Shown one piece after another: positions 3,125 through 51,731 of a DNA stretch of 64,000 bases. The position numbers and the translations under genes are program-made. The first letter of the stretch is position 1. Each line of letters opens with the position of its first letter. Source of the DNA: an uncultured Clostridia bacterium (GTDB lineage Bacteria > Bacillota > Clostridia > Christensenellales > UBA1242); NCBI GenBank assembly GCA_944384395.1, contig CALWTD010000012.1, positions 57,596-121,595 on the forward strand. The letters are read 5' to 3'. The notes beneath the pieces were generated by a model. The model made no database searches, was not told where the DNA came from, and saw only the letters and a program-made list of their open reading frames with translations.

Positions 3125-4327
3125 ATGGAAGACGGCAAAAGAGCCTTAGATGCCATAGGCAAAAAAATTAAATTAAAAGAAGAAATTGATCAACCTTTTG
3201 ATGAAAACACATTAAAAGACGTTAATTTAGAAATTGAAGAATCAAAAGAAGAACAAACTCAAAAAACAATCGCATTAAAAGTTTTTAGCAAAGACGTTGG
3301 TTTAAATGGTCTTTGTGAACTTAATTTAGGCAAAGCTTACAAACTCACAAATGACGGAAGAAGAGTTAAATATCCATCTTCTTATAAATGTGCAATGAAC
3401 GAAAAATGGTTAGATTACATTATTGAACAAATAAAAAATGCAACAAATCCCGTTGTGATTGTTTCAGATATTTTTACAAGAGTAACAACTGGAAACAATG
3501 AAGATACATTGCCATACAAAGAACAACTTGCATATGGTTATAAAAAATTAAAAGACATAAAAGATAAAATTATTTTGGTTAGAGGTCTTAAAGAAAAAGA
3601 AATAATTGATAATGGTGGACCTGATTTAATGGGTAAACTTGCGAATATGCTTGATATGAAAAACAAACTTGTAAATGCAGGCTTTCATTTAACGCTAAAT
3701 TTAAGTAATCAAAAATCAAAACAGGTTTCACTTCTTCACTACAACGAAAAAATCAACACGGTTCGTTCGCTTGCAATTTCAATGCAAAAATTTGCAAACA
3801 ATAATCCAGGTCACGACATTTATTTTTGTACAACAAGCAAAACAAATTGGTATTCTTGTGGACTTACAACATATGTAACAAAAGATGGTCAAACTGCAAC
3901 AAAACCTTGTTGGTTTATTGCGTTTGGTGGAATGTATGAATTTGACAAAACAAACGAAAAAAGACCCAAAGTTGGAGCATACACTTTAAATAATGACTGG
4001 TTTAAAATAATGATGGACAAAAACAATTTTGTTAGAGCAGATAGAGTTGATTATAGATATCCTCACCCAACAAAGATTGATTCATCAAATTATATAAGTT
4101 CTGTTATAGCAGACACCAAAAGTAACAGTTATAAAGAATTATTTAATGAATTATCTGCATCGCTTGATAAGATGAATGAAAGGCTTTCAAAATCAACATC
4201 AAAACAAATTACTTCTTCAATTCATAAAGCAAAAGAAAAGGCAAAAGAAAAAGAAAACAAAAAAAATATTCAATTTGTTGATCAACGAAAAAACAAAAAA
4301 CAAAATAATGGAGAAGAAAAAGTATGA
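3125..4327 (+). CDS. Hypothetical protein, apparently a degenerate (metal-ligand-less) paralogue of the upstream metallophosphoesterase, with a Lys-rich tail
   Basis: By-eye colinear blocks against the upstream protein: VVIVSDIF vs VLVFIGDWHIG, ILVRGLKEKE vs IHSGNHERR, LLHYNEK vs VTHHGDSG, GHDIYF vs GHKHVF. The catalytic residues are replaced. Confidence 0.45.
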   Translation: MEDGKRALDAIGKKIKLKEEIDQPFDENTLKDVNLEIEESKEEQTQKTIALKVFSKDVGLNGLCELNLGKAYKLTNDGRRVKYPSSYKCAMNEKWLDYIIEQIKNATNPVVIVSDIFTRVTTGNNEDTLPYKEQLAYGYKKLKDIKDKIILVRGLKEKEIIDNGGPDLMGKLANMLDMKNKLVNAGFHLTLNLSNQKSKQVSLLHYNEKINTVRSLAISMQKFANNNPGHDIYFCTTSKTNWYSCGLTTYVTKDGQTATKPCWFIAFGGMYEFDKTNEKRPKVGAYTLNNDWFKIMMDKNNFVRADRVDYRYPHPTKIDSSNYISSVIADTKSNSYKELFNELSASLDKMNERLSKSTSKQITSSIHKAKEKAKEKENKKNIQFVDQRKNKKQNNGEEKV

Positions 4328-4590
4328 TGGAAGGAATAAGAACAGACGGACCAAATATCACTTGCGCAGGATGTGGACAAAAAGTTTCAAAAGACGGAAC
4401 ATTGAAATTAAACTTTTGTCCAAAGTGTGGCAATCCCTTGAACATTGATGCATCAGTAAAATATGAAAAAGCAGTAAATCATGAAAAACTTGTTATGTTA
4501 TATGAACTTATTGACACAATAAACGAAAATAATGAAGACGCAAAAAAAGTAATAAATGATTTTATAAAAGAATTAGAAAACGAAGATTAA
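4324..4590 (+). CDS. Small zinc-ribbon protein (CxxC-X14-CxxC) with acidic helical tail
   Basis: Contains CAGCGQ...CPKCGN. The ATGA start/stop overlap with the upstream gene suggests translational coupling. Confidence 0.6.
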   Translation: MMEGIRTDGPNITCAGCGQKVSKDGTLKLNFCPKCGNPLNIDASVKYEKAVNHEKLVMLYELIDTINENNEDAKKVINDFIKELENED

Positions 4591-4611
4591 ATTTTATTTA
4601 ATTACTACATA

Positions 4612-4697
4612 AAAAAGAACTCTACAAAATGAAGTAAACACCCTAAAGTTGTCTAACTTTTGGGCTTTATTTCAAATAGTAAAGTTCTTTTTTTGTT
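4612..4697. terminator. Nested hairpin between convergent genes (bidirectional terminator candidate)
   Basis: Outer arms are AAAAAGAACTCTAC (4612-4625) and GTAAAGTTCTTTTT (4679-4692). The inner hairpin is CCCTAAAGTT-gtct-AACTTTTGGG (4641-4664). Confidence 0.5.
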
Positions 4698-4738
4698 TTT
4701 TTAAACTATAATTTACAAATTTTTAATTATGTGTAAAA

Positions 4739-5476
4739 TCAAAAATTCATCCTTATTAATTCGTCAAGTTGAGTCAAATACTCCTGTATGGCTTTTTTTG
4801 TTTTTACAATACCATTTTTATAAATGTAATCCGTTGACACTTGAGTATCATAAAAAATTGTATCTTCTATTGATTTTATGTCCATTTCATAACTTAAATT
4901 AAATGATGCCATAAATTTAACTCTATAAGTATCTATTTCGGCAATTGTTATGCTACCTTGTCCCGTTTTTAAATCCCAAATGAAAACATAATGATTATAC
5001 TTATCAACGCGATTATGTTCTAAAATATAAATAGAATTATTATAATTAATTAAATAACCATTTGTTTTAATAACTCCTGTTCCCCCAAGTAGTTTAATTG
5101 CTAAACCACCTGCGTTTGATACTCCAACTTCATGATCTGACACTTCTTCGCCACTTTGATTAACCAATTTACTAAACGCTTCTACATATGTTAAACTTCT
5201 AGCATATAACGATATATCTTCCATAATTTTATTTGAAAAATGAAACTTTTCAGAATAATTTACATCTAAATACCAACCATCAATAACATTTCCTTCTGCA
5301 ACAAAAAAATTGGGATAATTAACATAATCACTTGTTTCTTGAGTTTCTAAATATGCACCATCTAAATAAAATGAAATGTTGAATTTTTGTTCATTGCAAC
5401 CATACATAGAAATTATTGAAAAAAGAAATAACGGCAAAATCAATAATATGTTCTTTATATTTTTAAACTTCAACAT
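4739..5476 (-). CDS. Lipoprotein with a Listeria/Bacteroides-type repeat
   Basis: Lipobox signal peptide MLKFKNIKNILLILPLFLFSIISMYGC. Repeat pattern is ISFYLDG...GWYLDVNYSEKF...SLYA. Start moved to the signal-peptide Met at 5476. Confidence 0.6.
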   Translation of the reverse strand: MLKFKNIKNILLILPLFLFSIISMYGCNEQKFNISFYLDGAYLETQETSDYVNYPNFFVAEGNVIDGWYLDVNYSEKFHFSNKIMEDISLYARSLTYVEAFSKLVNQSGEEVSDHEVGVSNAGGLAIKLLGGTGVIKTNGYLINYNNSIYILEHNRVDKYNHYVFIWDLKTGQGSITIAEIDTYRVKFMASFNLSYEMDIKSIEDTIFYDTQVSTDYIYKNGIVKTKKAIQEYLTQLDELIRMNF

Positions 5477-5921
5477 AACCAGACACCACCCTTTTAACAA
5501 CTGGTCTTGTTGGAGACATAAAAGGTTGCAACGGACCATTTCTCACGAAGAAAAACGAACCATAACCATTTTCACTGATTCTGTTTTGATCTTTTGCTCC
5601 TGTCACACCTATTTCAATCACAAGGTTTACAAAGCGATATTCTCCAAGACTATATGTTTCAACACTATACACATGGTTTACATAATTTGCTATTGTATTA
5701 GAATTATACTTTGTTTTTTCTACACTATAATTAATACCCAAATAACGAGAAATATTATTAACTGTAAGTTGAATTCTTGTTACAGATGATGTATCAGTGT
5801 CACCATCTGTTGAAGTATCATTATTATCACCACACCCAGCAAACAAAAAAACGCAAGAAAATAATAATATCACAGCCAAAAATAAACATAAATATATATT
5901 TTTGTTTTTGATTTTTTCCAT
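5463..5921 (-). CDS. Lipoprotein of unknown function
   Basis: MEKIKNKNIYLCLFLAVILLFSCVFLFAGC lipobox. AAGGAG lies 6 nt upstream of the ATG at 5921. There is a 14-nt overlap with the downstream lipoprotein gene. Confidence 0.6.
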   Translation of the reverse strand: MEKIKNKNIYLCLFLAVILLFSCVFLFAGCGDNNDTSTDGDTDTSSVTRIQLTVNNISRYLGINYSVEKTKYNSNTIANYVNHVYSVETYSLGEYRFVNLVIEIGVTGAKDQNRISENGYGSFFFVRNGPLQPFMSPTRPVVKRVVSGYVEV

Positions 5922-6165
5922 AGACAACTCCTTTATAAATTAACTGATTTGTAAATGTTTAAATCTATTTGACCCTTTTATAATTAAAATCCTAAAAATA
6001 ATGATCTATAAATGAAAATTTAACTAGCAACAACTAAAATATTAATTGTAAGTTTTTTTAATAAAATTTAAAGATAGGATATAATAAATAAAAAAATGGT
6101 TTATAAACAAAATACTATTACTAAAAACGCATTTTTTTATTTTGTTAAATTTAAAATATTTTGTA

Positions 6166-6753
6166 TCATATTTTTATTCTGCTTTCAAGAGCTCTTGTTA
6201 GTGTTACTTCATCAGCAAATTCAAGTTCACTTCCCATGCTTACACCTTGTGCTAGGCGAGTTACTTTTACATTTAATGGTTCTAATAATTTTGCAATATA
6301 CATTGCCGTTGCATCGCCTTCAACATCAGGATTTGTTGCCATGATAACTTCTTTTGTGTGATATTTTTGAACTCTTTGCAAAAGTTCTTTTATTCTTATA
6401 TCATTTGGTCCCCTATTTTCTAGTGGGCTTATTGTCCCATGCAAAACATGAAAAACGCCGTCAAAACTTTTAACTTTTTCCATTGCAACAACATCTTTTG
6501 GCTCTTTAACTACGCAAATTATATCCTTGTTTTTCTTTAAACAATTTTCACACACTTCAGTTTCAGAGAAATTTCCACATTCTGAGCAAAATTTTATGTT
6601 TTCTTTTGCAAGTATTAAATTATCTGCAAACTCTTTTACATTTTCTTTGCTTGCATTTAAAATACTGTATGCATATCTTTGTGCAGTTTTATATCCTACG
6701 CCAGGAAGTTTTCTAAATGAGTTTATTAGTTTTTCTAATGATTCTATATACAT
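6166..6753 (-). CDS. recR: Recombination protein RecR
   Basis: HhH motif (LPGVGYKTAQR), C4 zinc finger (CSECGN...CENC) and a Toprim domain. It lies in dnaX-ybaB-recR synteny. Confidence 0.95.
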   Translation of the reverse strand: MYIESLEKLINSFRKLPGVGYKTAQRYAYSILNASKENVKEFADNLILAKENIKFCSECGNFSETEVCENCLKKNKDIICVVKEPKDVVAMEKVKSFDGVFHVLHGTISPLENRGPNDIRIKELLQRVQKYHTKEVIMATNPDVEGDATAMYIAKLLEPLNVKVTRLAQGVSMGSELEFADEVTLTRALESRIKI

Positions 6754-6754
6754 T

Positions 6755-7084
6755 TTATAGTCCTTGTGGAAGTGATGGCAATTTTTCTTGTTCGGCTTTT
6801 GTTATTTTCTCCACAGCATCATTTATTGCTGATTGAATTAAATCTTCTAACATTTCCACATCGTCTGGGTCAACAACTTCTGGTTTAATCTCAACTTTTT
6901 TTGCTCTTTTATCACCTGTTAGTGTAATTTGAACCATGCCACCACCACTTGTTCCAATAAAATCTGTGTTTACTAATTCTTCTTTTGCCTTTTCCATGTC
7001 TTGTTGCATTTTTTGTGCTTGACGCATTAAGTTTTGCAGATTGGCTCCACCAAATCCATTAAATCCACCTCTAAAATTATTCAT
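6755..7084 (-). CDS. ybaB: Nucleoid-associated protein YbaB/EbfC
   Basis: Typical sequence NLQNLMRQAQKMQQDMEKAKEEL...SGGGMV. Conserved position between dnaX and recR. Confidence 0.9.
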   Translation of the reverse strand: MNNFRGGFNGFGGANLQNLMRQAQKMQQDMEKAKEELVNTDFIGTSGGGMVQITLTGDKRAKKVEIKPEVVDPDDVEMLEDLIQSAINDAVEKITKAEQEKLPSLPQGL

Positions 7085-7094
7085 ATTATTCTCC

Positions 7095-7472
7095 TTATTT
7101 TTTATTTATTATAATTACTTCATTGTTAAAATATTTGTTTAATATTTTTATATTATCTTCATCTGTTATTTGTTTTTTACTTTTTTTAATTTCAATATTT
7201 TCATATCCAAAAAATTTAAATGCATTTTGTAATTGTTTATAATTGTCTGTTTCATTTAGCATATCAATAATGCTTTGCTCTGTTGTTTTTATTATAAACT
7301 TGTCATTTTCAATGCTAACATCGGTTATATCTCCACAAACTATGTGCAAAATATTGTTGTTATGCTCTCTTAAATAAACGATTATTTTACCCCAAAGTGT
7401 TCGAGCAGAAAGATTTTTATAATTTGTGGATTTTAGATTTTGTTCCAATTTTACTTGTTTAGTTATAGACAT
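7095..7472 (-). CDS. Separate ORF resembling the C-terminal (tau-specific) domain of Firmicute DnaX, in the -1 frame relative to dnaX
   Basis: LWGKIIVYLREHN..ILHIVCGDITDVSIENDKFIIK...YKQLQNAF..FGYENIEI fits my memory of the DnaX C-terminal pattern (W..vl..l....l.a.l....pv....f.l.f). Its ATG overlaps the dnaX TGA (TGATG). Confidence 0.5.
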   Translation of the reverse strand: MSITKQVKLEQNLKSTNYKNLSARTLWGKIIVYLREHNNNILHIVCGDITDVSIENDKFIIKTTEQSIIDMLNETDNYKQLQNAFKFFGYENIEIKKSKKQITDEDNIKILNKYFNNEVIIINKK

Positions 7473-8569
7473 CAGTTTTTTTTTTGACTATCGGTTAAAC
7501 ACGATACTATTGCTGTTTCTATTAAAGTTTTTGGCGACATTGCATATTTTATTTCTGCTTCTATCGCTGAAAATATTTTCATATTTTCCATAAGTTCTTT
7601 TGTATCAAAATCTTTTGCAAGCATTTTATATTTTTCAAAAATTTCTGTGGTGAAATTAAGCATTTTATCGGCATTCTCGCAAGTTTTTGCCACTAACAAA
7701 TTTCTAAAACACATTGTTAAATCTTTTGCAACAACACTCATATTTTTGCCAAGTTTTTGAATTTCGTCTAAAATGGTTAAAGCATTTCCAATGTCTTTAT
7801 CATGTATACTTTTACATATTTTTAAATATGTCTCATGATTTGTACTTCCTAAAATATTCATTACAAGGTTTGCTGTTATTTTCCCATGAGAATATGCAAC
7901 CATACAATCTGCAATAGAAAGCATGTCTCTATCACTGCCTTGCGCAGCTGATGCAATTAGTTTATAAGCATCTTCTTCACATTCAACATTTTCATTTTTA
8001 AAAATTTGTTTTAGTTGTTTTATTAAAACTTCATCACTAATTAAATGAAAATCAAAACGCATACATCTTGAAAGAATTGTTGCAGGAAGTTTGTGAACTT
8101 CCGTAGTTGCCAAAATAAACACTATATGTGATGGTGGTTCTTCAAGTGTTTTTAAAAGTGCATTAAAGGCGCTTTCTGTAAGCATATGCACTTCGTCAAT
8201 TATATAAACTTTATATTTACCGTTTACGGGCAAAAATTTCACTTTTTCTCTTATATCTCTTATTTCGTCAACTCTATTATTTGATGCTGCATCTATTTCC
8301 ACAACATCAACATTGTTATTGTCGCTAAGTGCCTTACAAACATCACAATTATAGCATGGCGAACCATTTTGTGGATTTAAACAGTTTATTGCTTTTGCAA
8401 ATATTTTTGCAGTTGTTGTTTTTCCTGTTCCCCTTGTACCAGTAAAAAGATAGGCATGGTTTATTTGACCTGCTTTTATTTGATTTTTAAGAGTTTCTAC
8501 AATATGCTCTTGCCCAACAATTTGCTCAAATGTTTTTGGTCTATATTTTCTATACAGTGCTTGATACAT
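7472..8569 (-). CDS. dnaX: DNA polymerase III gamma/tau subunit, domains I-III only (365 aa)
   Basis: Walker A (GTRGTGKTT), zinc module (CLNPQNGSPCYNCDVC), DEVHML, SRC motif (LSRCMRFDF). It ends in TGA right after an A10 run. Confidence 0.95.
   Translation of the reverse strand: MYQALYRKYRPKTFEQIVGQEHIVETLKNQIKAGQINHAYLFTGTRGTGKTTTAKIFAKAINCLNPQNGSPCYNCDVCKALSDNNNVDVVEIDAASNNRVDEIRDIREKVKFLPVNGKYKVYIIDEVHMLTESAFNALLKTLEEPPSHIVFILATTEVHKLPATILSRCMRFDFHLISDEVLIKQLKQIFKNENVECEEDAYKLIASAAQGSDRDMLSIADCMVAYSHGKITANLVMNILGSTNHETYLKICKSIHDKDIGNALTILDEIQKLGKNMSVVAKDLTMCFRNLLVAKTCENADKMLNFTTEIFEKYKMLAKDFDTKELMENMKIFSAIEAEIKYAMSPKTLIETAIVSCLTDSQKKN
7476..7485 (-). promoter_or_regulatory. A10 homopolymer (slippery run) at the dnaX / downstream-ORF junction
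   Basis: The minus strand reads CAAAAAAAAAACTGATG. A -1 shift, or one extra A in the mRNA, fuses the two ORFs. Confidence 0.6.
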
Positions 8570-8616
8570 AATTCTCCTTGCATAATTATATACTTTTTTT
8601 TTTGTTTATCAAAATA

Positions 8617-17882: not shown

Positions 17883-17924
17883 ATAACATTAAAAAAAAAC
17901 AAAAACACGAAATTTTCGTGTTTT

Positions 17925-27234: not shown

Positions 27235-27395
27235 AAATCACCTCGCCTTTATAATAAAGGTGAATTATAAAAAAATGGTAAAAATAATTTATAATTTATG
27301 TTACATTTTTGTCGGAATATAAAACTAATTTACCATTCTTTTTTTTTATACATTTTTTGCATGAAAAATTAGGTTTAATTTTAATAATATATAAA

Positions 27396-51546: not shown

Positions 51547-51731
51547 TACAACCTCTAAATTTTAACATTTCTTATTATATATAAGATTATAACATAATAA
51601 TACAATAAAAATCAATAATTTTAAATATTAAACGATTTAAGCAAGTATTGACACAATAAAAAAAAAGAATTAAACTATACATAGTTAATATTAAATATAA
51701 ATATATAAATTATCAAAATAAGGAACAAAAA

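Follow-up and report, generated by a model that had tools for sequence, protein, structure and literature searches.

In Escherichia coli, dnaX is subject to -1 programmed ribosomal frameshifting at an A_AAA_AAG heptamer, which is accompanied by an upstream Shine-Dalgarno (SD)-like element and a downstream stem-loop. The C-terminal domain of tau, the longer dnaX product, joins the clamp loader to the replicative polymerase in characterised systems. For the dnaX of Thermus thermophilus, slippage on a run of nine A residues (A9) was found to give mixed mRNAs and about 50% short product (Larsen et al. 2000, PNAS 97:1683, to the extent that it is summarised in PMC1088944). A "reversed" dnaX layout made of two open reading frames (ORFs) was described by Antonov, Coakley, Atkins, Baranov & Borodovsky (2013, NAR 41:6514; PMC3711429) for 17 genes in 12 genera. 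Here, we describe a dnaX of the reversed layout in a 64,000-nucleotide stretch of DNA, hereafter the window, from an uncultured Clostridia bacterium (GenBank assembly GCA_944384395.1, contig CALWTD010000012.1, positions 57,596 to 121,595 of the forward strand). This dnaX is probably subject to programmed recoding of the reversed kind, most likely through transcriptional slippage on a run of ten A residues (A10), with a gamma-like protein as the default product and a tau-like protein made by slippage.

Each gene of the published reversed class consists of two adjacent ORFs with a -1 shift between them at the DNA level; poly-A runs are present in 12 of the 17, nine of them exactly A10, and transcriptional realignment was predicted by analogy with Thermus (PMC3711429). 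The taxa are Chlorobium, Prosthecochloris, Pelodictyon, Chloroherpeton, Flavobacterium, Cytophaga, Capnocytophaga and Coraliomargarita, and the motif is A10-G (PMC3711429). The class, known from the phyla Chlorobi, Bacteroidetes and Verrucomicrobia, was described bioinformatically (PMC3711429, PMC5009743). Atkins et al. (2016) restate it in a discussion of ribosomal frameshifting (PMC5009743), and neither paper cites experimental confirmation (PMC3711429, PMC5009743). No report of a reversed dnaX in Clostridia or Firmicutes was found in our literature search. The initial annotation of the window, made from its letters alone, had called the arrangement the mirror image of E. coli and Thermus, and the polarity is indeed reversed, with the zero frame ending at 365 amino acids (aa). 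The novelty is smaller than it implied, as the layout was already published for other phyla (PMC3711429, PMC5009743). The locus is a further, clade-level and likewise putative case of a known, still hypothetical class, and is new for Clostridia.

On the minus strand of the window, the 3' end of dnaX reads ...GAT AGT CAA AAA AAA AAC TGA. The coordinates that the initial annotation had assigned to the 365-aa dnaX, to the A10 run at 7476-7485, to the TGATG overlap and to a 125-aa ORF in the -1 frame all agree with the sequence. The features of the locus are as follows:

7472..8569, minus strand: zero-frame ORF of dnaX, 365 aa, encoding the gamma-like product (domains I-III)
7476..7485, minus strand: A10 run, the proposed slippage (recoding) site; T10 on the plus strand, followed by the invariant C at 7475
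7472..7474, minus strand: zero-frame TGA stop, 1 nucleotide (nt) past the run, which ends the gamma-like product
7459..7461, minus strand: third-frame TAA stop, which would terminate mRNAs with one A fewer or two more (...QKKTDVYN*)
7095..7487, minus strand: tau (-1) frame, which opens 2 nt upstream of the run and is closed by a TAA
7095..7472, minus strand: annotated 125-aa ORF, at -1 relative to dnaX
7098..7394, minus strand: core of the conserved C-terminal domain, from W27 through the last residue of the 125-aa ORF (WGK..YLREH...LHIVCGDITDV)
6755-7084, minus strand: ybaB (PF02575)
6166-6753, minus strand: recR (RecR domains)

The start of dnaX at 8569 is preceded by an AAGGAG SD sequence. 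Consistent with the ATPase, zinc module and collar proposed in the initial annotation, the 365-aa product comprises DnaX domains I-III alone: ATPase domain I with a zinc module, the four Cys of which are visible, lid domain II and collar domain III. In Pfam, it matches DNA_pol3_delta2 (E = 1.1e-48), DNAX_ATPase_lid (5e-12) and DNA_pol3_gamma3 (2e-11), and in NCBIfam, TIGR02397 (1.7e-134; 448.5 bits, cut-off 250). Its match to NF004046, the Firmicute DnaX model of 567 positions, reaches 519.3 bits (cut-off 400) and covers model positions 1-361. The ATG of the 125-aa ORF overlaps the dnaX stop, sharing its A with the TGA, and the -1 frame has a stop directly upstream of the run. Only a -1 shift or one extra A joins the two parts; either would give ...DSQKKKLMSITKQ... 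and a predicted 491-aa fusion of about 56 kDa with the junction peptide DSQKKKLMSITK, close to the length of about 490 aa anticipated in the initial annotation. Residues 365-491 of this predicted tau-like product (KLMSITKQ...INKK) are added by the -1 frame.

The 125-aa ORF had been likened by eye to the C-terminal domain of DnaX. Neither Pfam nor NCBIfam gave a significant match (OGG_N at E = 0.032, which is noise, and PRK07764 at E = 0.084), and the 22 homologues returned by a sequence search with the ORF are likewise short, at 84-135 aa, with none inside a long DnaX. The likeness is borne out by a profile built from 19 family members (alignment A1) and searched exhaustively against 1.84 billion representatives, which matched 160 proteins at E <= 1e-3. 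The long matches are, by Pfam, four full-length DnaX proteins, P0064 (537 aa, hmmsearch E = 3.6e-11), P0084 (507 aa, 4.4e-9), P0135 (538 aa, 2e-6) and P0169 (603 aa, 2.5e-4), and four DnaX fragments (P0050, P0059, P0073 and P0128), and in each of them the match lies at the extreme C-terminus. The predicted 491-aa fusion is collinear with intact DnaX, aligning through the junction in one high-scoring segment pair with P0084 (47% identity over 483 aa) and likewise with P0064 (42% over 509 aa). This homology identifies the 125-aa ORF as the DnaX C-terminal (tau-specific) domain, which by analogy with tau in model bacteria would bind the polymerase. Purifying selection on the downstream domain is strong, with a ratio of nonsynonymous to synonymous substitution rates (dN/dS) of about 0.03-0.15 where dS could be estimated. 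An AlphaFold2 (AF2) model of the ORF has a predicted local distance difference test score (pLDDT) of 79.5 and forms a small alpha/beta domain, with block means above 85 at residues 21-100. A Foldseek search of the model against the PDB returned no hit with E <= 0.001; weak resemblances were to DnaA domain I (2e0g, 4tps), to DciA (8a3v) and, within the E. coli Pol III complex, to the C-terminal chain of tau (5fku_E). The model is consistent with a tau C-terminal fold, and is no independent proof of it.

For a comparison of dnaX architecture and run length among relatives, as suggested in the initial annotation, loci were gathered from the contigs of the 125-aa ORF homologues, 17 GTDB representative loci, seven metagenome loci and three more distant members. 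The junction set numbers 26 (the window, 17 GTDB species representatives, and contigs from ENA, Logan and JGI), statistics on frames and start codons cover 25 lineages, and the junction alignment holds 18 sequences. The assemblies come from varied projects and assemblers (MEGAHIT, SPAdes, Logan unitigs). The source metagenome-assembled genomes (MAGs) are named at NCBI "uncultured Christensenella sp." or "Clostridia/Clostridiales bacterium", have G+C contents of 28-43% and, by their record names, derive from the human gut, the rumen and the guts of other animals.

All 26 junctions are split and none is in frame. In 21 the run is A10 with the downstream ORF at -1; the other five have A9, four in another codon phase (GTA AAA AAA AAC TRA) with the downstream ORF again at -1, and one, discussed below, with it at +1. 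The A run and the C that follows it form the sole invariant block of the junction alignment. Codons before the run vary (CAA, GAA, GTA) yet retain their A's, and the Asn codon AAC, the rarer one at 34% usage, is invariant at its end. Synonymous sites of the adjacent domain are near saturation, with a proportion of synonymous differences of 0.47-0.75 or more. In all 25 lineages, a zero-frame stop lies 1-10 nt past the run (1 nt past it in many, including the window) and both non-tau frames close 0-6 codons past it, while the -1 frame opens 2-48 nt upstream. With the -1 frame opening so close before the run and the zero frame closing so soon after it, the productive overlap is essentially the run itself. 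The three more distant members have the same split design at the DNA level with longer linkers of 196-233 aa. Among 148 retrieved profile matches, 139 are short stand-alone proteins, all starting with M, V or L, and 19 of these 139 carry the translated run (KKKL or KKKR) near the N-terminus. In the sequences retrieved, the split form dominates this family of C-terminal domains and spans many clusters at 50% identity.

The window and the published reversed class share most of their features. In both, the first ORF encodes domains I-III and an adjacent ORF the C-terminal part of tau; the downstream ORF lies at -1 in the DNA, here in the window and 25 of the 26 junctions; a poly-A run (7-10, typically 10) with a zero-frame stop directly after it marks the junction; and the position and motif of the frameshift are conserved across species and genera, a sign of purifying selection on the slip site. 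Tau would require recoding in the published members as in the window, and its production is a prediction in both. They differ in the host, here uncultured Clostridia (Bacillota), in the motif, here A10-C and not A10-G, and in the tau extension, here short and of Firmicute type (about 125-225 aa). Further differences are that the run here occurs in two codon phases, that one junction is a +1 variant and that the family includes relatives with the run in frame. Like the window, Thermus dnaX has an A run of at least nine at the gamma/tau boundary and nearby stops in both non-tau frames. However, tau is the zero-frame product in Thermus and slippage truncates it to gamma, the reverse of the window. 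The mixed A-run lengths of Thermus mRNA are a prediction for the window, to which the depletion of long runs from its coding DNA, described below, lends indirect support. E. coli dnaX shares with the window the gene itself, the boundary between domain III and tau, an A-rich site of Lys codons and products with a common N-terminus. It differs in that tau is the zero-frame product, in its A_AAA_AAG heptamer (the run here is followed by C and is longer than a heptamer), and in its SD-like stimulator and stem-loop, neither of which is conserved here; a G-rich upstream stretch occurs in one subclade only. Poly-A rescue by transcriptional slippage is described for Shigella flexneri mxiE and for the endosymbionts Buchnera and Blochmannia (cited in PMC1088944 and PMC5009743). 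There too, two overlapping ORFs are joined only in mRNAs with a non-templated extra base, and the long product depends on slippage. Those are other genes, and the endosymbiont cases are usually seen as tolerated decay, whereas the dnaX site has been kept throughout a clade, in a replication gene that is essential where studied.

How the two products might arise can be outlined as follows. Standard decoding of mRNA with the templated A10 would stop right past the run and yield the 365-aa gamma-like clamp-loader subunit, and in a fraction of expression events the frame would shift at the run to give the 491-aa tau-like protein with its C-terminal domain. RNA polymerase would realign on the A10:T10 hybrid and produce A11 (or A8) mRNAs, which ordinary translation would read as ...SQKKKLMSITKQ..., while A9 or A12 mRNAs would give a second short form ending in ...QKK(K)TDVYN*. 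Ribosomes that shift by -1 on A_AAA_AAA or A_AAA_AAC beside the stop codon may contribute as well.

A long run in which the codons vary and the A's are kept has been treated as a signature of transcriptional realignment (PMC1088944, PMC3711429), and the depletion of runs of a given length as a criterion for such runs being prone to slippage in an organism (Baranov et al. 2005, PMC1088944). The 61 ORFs of at least 120 aa in the window were compared with 300 shuffles of their synonymous codons. Coding DNA contains one A/T run of nine or more where 13.6 are expected, and none of the 300 shuffles gave one or fewer; runs of eight number 16 against 34 expected, and runs of seven 99 against 101. Since runs of nine or more are depleted and runs of seven are not, long runs are likely error-prone here. 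The dnaX run is the sole A/T homopolymer of at least nine inside a long ORF of the window, and the other four (8594-8603, 17891-17899, 27339-27347 and 51658-51666) are intergenic. The run at 8594-8603 on the minus strand is also an A10 and lies upstream of the dnaX start, between a -35-like TTGATA and a -10-like TATAAT; close relatives have A8-A9 there with equal overall spacing, and more distant ones are without it. As an A-rich promoter spacer found in close relatives only, this second A10 was set aside as the relevant run.

No conserved RNA element accompanies the dnaX run. RNAalifold found 0 conserved pairs in the 18-sequence junction alignment, a downstream stem-loop or pseudoknot was sought and none was found, the 50 nt past the run being unstructured, and no SD-like stimulator is conserved or, in the subclade of the window, present. 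A G-rich GGTGAGGGG stretch upstream of the run, confined to the subclade typified by L016, could pair with the anti-SD sequence. An upstream hairpin as in stimulators of the Penno type (TATCG...CGATA or TCATCAC...GTGATGA), for which inspection by eye had suggested covariation, was rejected as a general feature, with folding of the single sequences significant in two relatives only, L015 and L010. In these two, a stable TCATCAC-N8-GTGATGA hairpin sits within the 25 nt upstream of the run, leaving 2 nt between it and the A10 (-10.1 and -8.4 kcal/mol; z = -4.3 and -3.1). Other lineages form the hairpin weakly or not at all. It resembles nascent-RNA hairpins reported to stimulate transcriptional slippage.

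Three relatives depart from the common pattern. In L021 (2426-2836; JAGCEE010000275.1, a yak omasum MAG), and at no other junction, the GATAGTC-A(n)-CTAA context holds an A9, where its relatives have A10. The tau ORF of L021 is at +1 and would be restored by the loss of one A from the mRNA or the gain of two, or by a +1 or -2 ribosomal shift, but not by a -1 ribosomal shift; the other ORFs at this locus look intact. In L040 (600-660; JGI 3300014204, Ga0172381_10094173), dnaX is intact with an in-frame A10, GTC AAA AAA AAA ATA (VKKKITE), and both other frames stop immediately (KKK* and KKNN*), so tau is the default product and the polarity is that of Thermus. L030 (2600-2660) has an intact dnaX with an in-frame A8 at the homologous position (AKKNIS). 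Together, L040 and L030 suggest that the default product may toggle in evolution; with an in-frame A10 in the same domain family, the run appears to be kept in either polarity. Judged by their frames, L021 and L040 fit slippage at the RNA level better than a dedicated -1 ribosomal site.

Given the above, transcriptional slippage is favoured over its main rival, -1 ribosomal frameshifting, as the likely mechanism, with moderate confidence. Several considerations weigh against it. We infer from the sequence that tau is made, which machine is responsible and what the tau:gamma ratio might be. A stop codon immediately 3' of the site, as in many lineages here, is a classic feature of ribosomal frameshift sites; A10 is a good ribosomal slip site as well, and the sequence cannot separate the two mechanisms. 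A second full-length dnaX is possible outside the window, and the +1 frame of L021 comes from a single MAG and could be an assembly error, a second assembly of its junction having been sought among the retrieved proteins with none found. In some AT-rich organisms RNA polymerase may be unable to slip on a run of nine, as Baranov et al. (2005, PMC1088944) warn; the depletion test argues against a non-slipping polymerase here, though it covers 64 kb only. It is conceivable, but rather unlikely, that the same two products arise by the same recoding mainly through a -1 ribosomal frameshift on A_AAA_AAA or A_AAA_AAC, the mRNA keeping its A10. Exactly -1 is what 25 of the 26 junctions need, the zero-frame stop 1 nt past the run in the window and many lineages could help, the G-rich stretch of the L016-type subclade could act through the anti-SD sequence, and it is under ribosomal frameshifting that Atkins et al. 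(2016) treat the reversed dnaX (PMC5009743). On the other hand, the junctions share no stimulator, with no downstream stem-loop anywhere and no SD-like element in the subclade of the window. A_AAA_AAG is far more prone to shifting in E. coli than A_AAA_AAC or A_AAA_AAA (PMC5009743), yet none of the 26 junctions has AAG. Moreover, a ribosomal heptamer needs 7 nt, yet 9-10 A's are conserved, and neither the +1 of L021 nor the in-frame A10 of L040 with stops in both other frames fits a -1 site.

The initial annotation had also raised two more ordinary explanations, translational coupling and a homopolymer under-call, and both fare worse. A gamma-like DnaX together with a small, translationally coupled protein that has its own start and bears the tau C-terminal domain, the two either associated non-covalently or acting separately, would agree with the ATG found at the stop in the window and the relatives nearest to it, which it overlaps or adjoins (TGATG, TAATG), and with the gene callers, which annotate two ORFs at every split dnaX locus. 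That overlap is, however, specific to those relatives. The ATG in the window is without an SD sequence, while dnaX and ybaB both have AAGGAG; an ATG lies within three codons of the run in just five of the 25 lineages, and at least eight have no ATG, GTG or TTG in the stretch from the run to the point where the conserved domain begins. Gene callers place the start within the core of the domain (MWGK, MYLREH, MHIVCGD) or at fortuitous -1-frame ATG codons upstream of the run, with heads like mckfrqrKKKLINE. The peptide right after the run is conserved without a start codon (KKKRTKLEYK.., KKKLIDE..), and the -1 frame opens just before the run. A separately initiated gene is disfavoured by these sequences, and we consider two polypeptides improbable. 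Slightly less probable still is phase variation at the DNA level, with A11 or A8 as tau-on and A10 as tau-off states, or a C-terminal domain in decay. Long homopolymers are hypermutable, and both the length and the phase of the run do vary among related lineages (A10, A9, in-frame A10, in-frame A8), but the absence of any in-frame consensus among 26 split-type junctions from different samples and assemblers would be unexpected for a replication gene switched on and off, and decay is excluded by the dN/dS values. The under-call, by which an intact gene with a true A11 would have been misread, is hardly credible. Homopolymers are error-prone on some platforms, but independent assemblies of one species, L001-L003 and the window, share the same A10, over 20 further species or lineages have it as well, and the zero-frame stop just past the run and the -1-frame stops just before it are co-conserved. 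With out-of-frame A10 or A9 in 26 junctions of such varied origin, the under-call was rejected.

Transcriptional slippage thus remains the preferred reading, and a wider version of it can be proposed more tentatively: a large clade of uncultured gut and rumen Clostridia may obtain tau solely through programmed infidelity of RNA polymerase at A10, having arrived at this independently of Bacteroidetes and Chlorobi and including toggled relatives (in-frame A10 or A8, and +1). The origin in this clade is presumably independent of the published phyla, and a putative reversed dnaX is now found in a phylum distant from them. Forward and reversed polarities within one domain family fit the view that, given efficient slippage, a single indel can swap the default product (Atkins et al. 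2016, PMC5009743). If the proposal is true, slippage would have an efficiency of tens of percent, enough for either frame to act as the default. A replisome subunit that is essential where studied would then rely on a programmed decoding "error", and the tau:gamma ratio could be tunable through modifiers of slippage such as nucleoside triphosphate pools or growth rate. In E. coli gamma is dispensable, and gamma is the predicted default product here. The clade supplies many natural variants of the site: A10, A9, +1, in frame, and with or without a hairpin.

For annotation, dnaX in these MAGs is called as a truncated, gamma-only gene and an unnamed small protein, sometimes with the wrong genetic code, and pipelines should merge the two ORFs as a slippage product. 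Genetic codes 4 and 25, in which TGA is sense, were considered for the window and rejected, as reading TGA as sense adds essentially nothing to ORF coverage. Table 11 fits, with ORFs of at least 120 aa covering 85% of the window and TGA ending nine of the 61, and most relatives carry TAA or TAG after the run, whatever the code. Some public gene calls for L001 (ERZ16268056 scaffold_2201) and for L006/L007 were made with code 4, resulting in a 368-aa DnaX, a 205-aa RecR and a 135-aa "protein" with a TTG start that runs through two TGA codons.

The window carries the canonical dnaX-ybaB-recR cluster, and the gene order is the same in the related loci with listed called genes. An Rfam scan of the window gave one tRNA-Ala as its sole match. 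L001 and L002, which are further assemblies of this species, carry a transposase pair of the IS3 family (HTH_Tnp_1 and rve) just past recR, at 4396-5504; at that position, 4300-6160, the window has different ORFs, suggesting strain-level variation in insertions.

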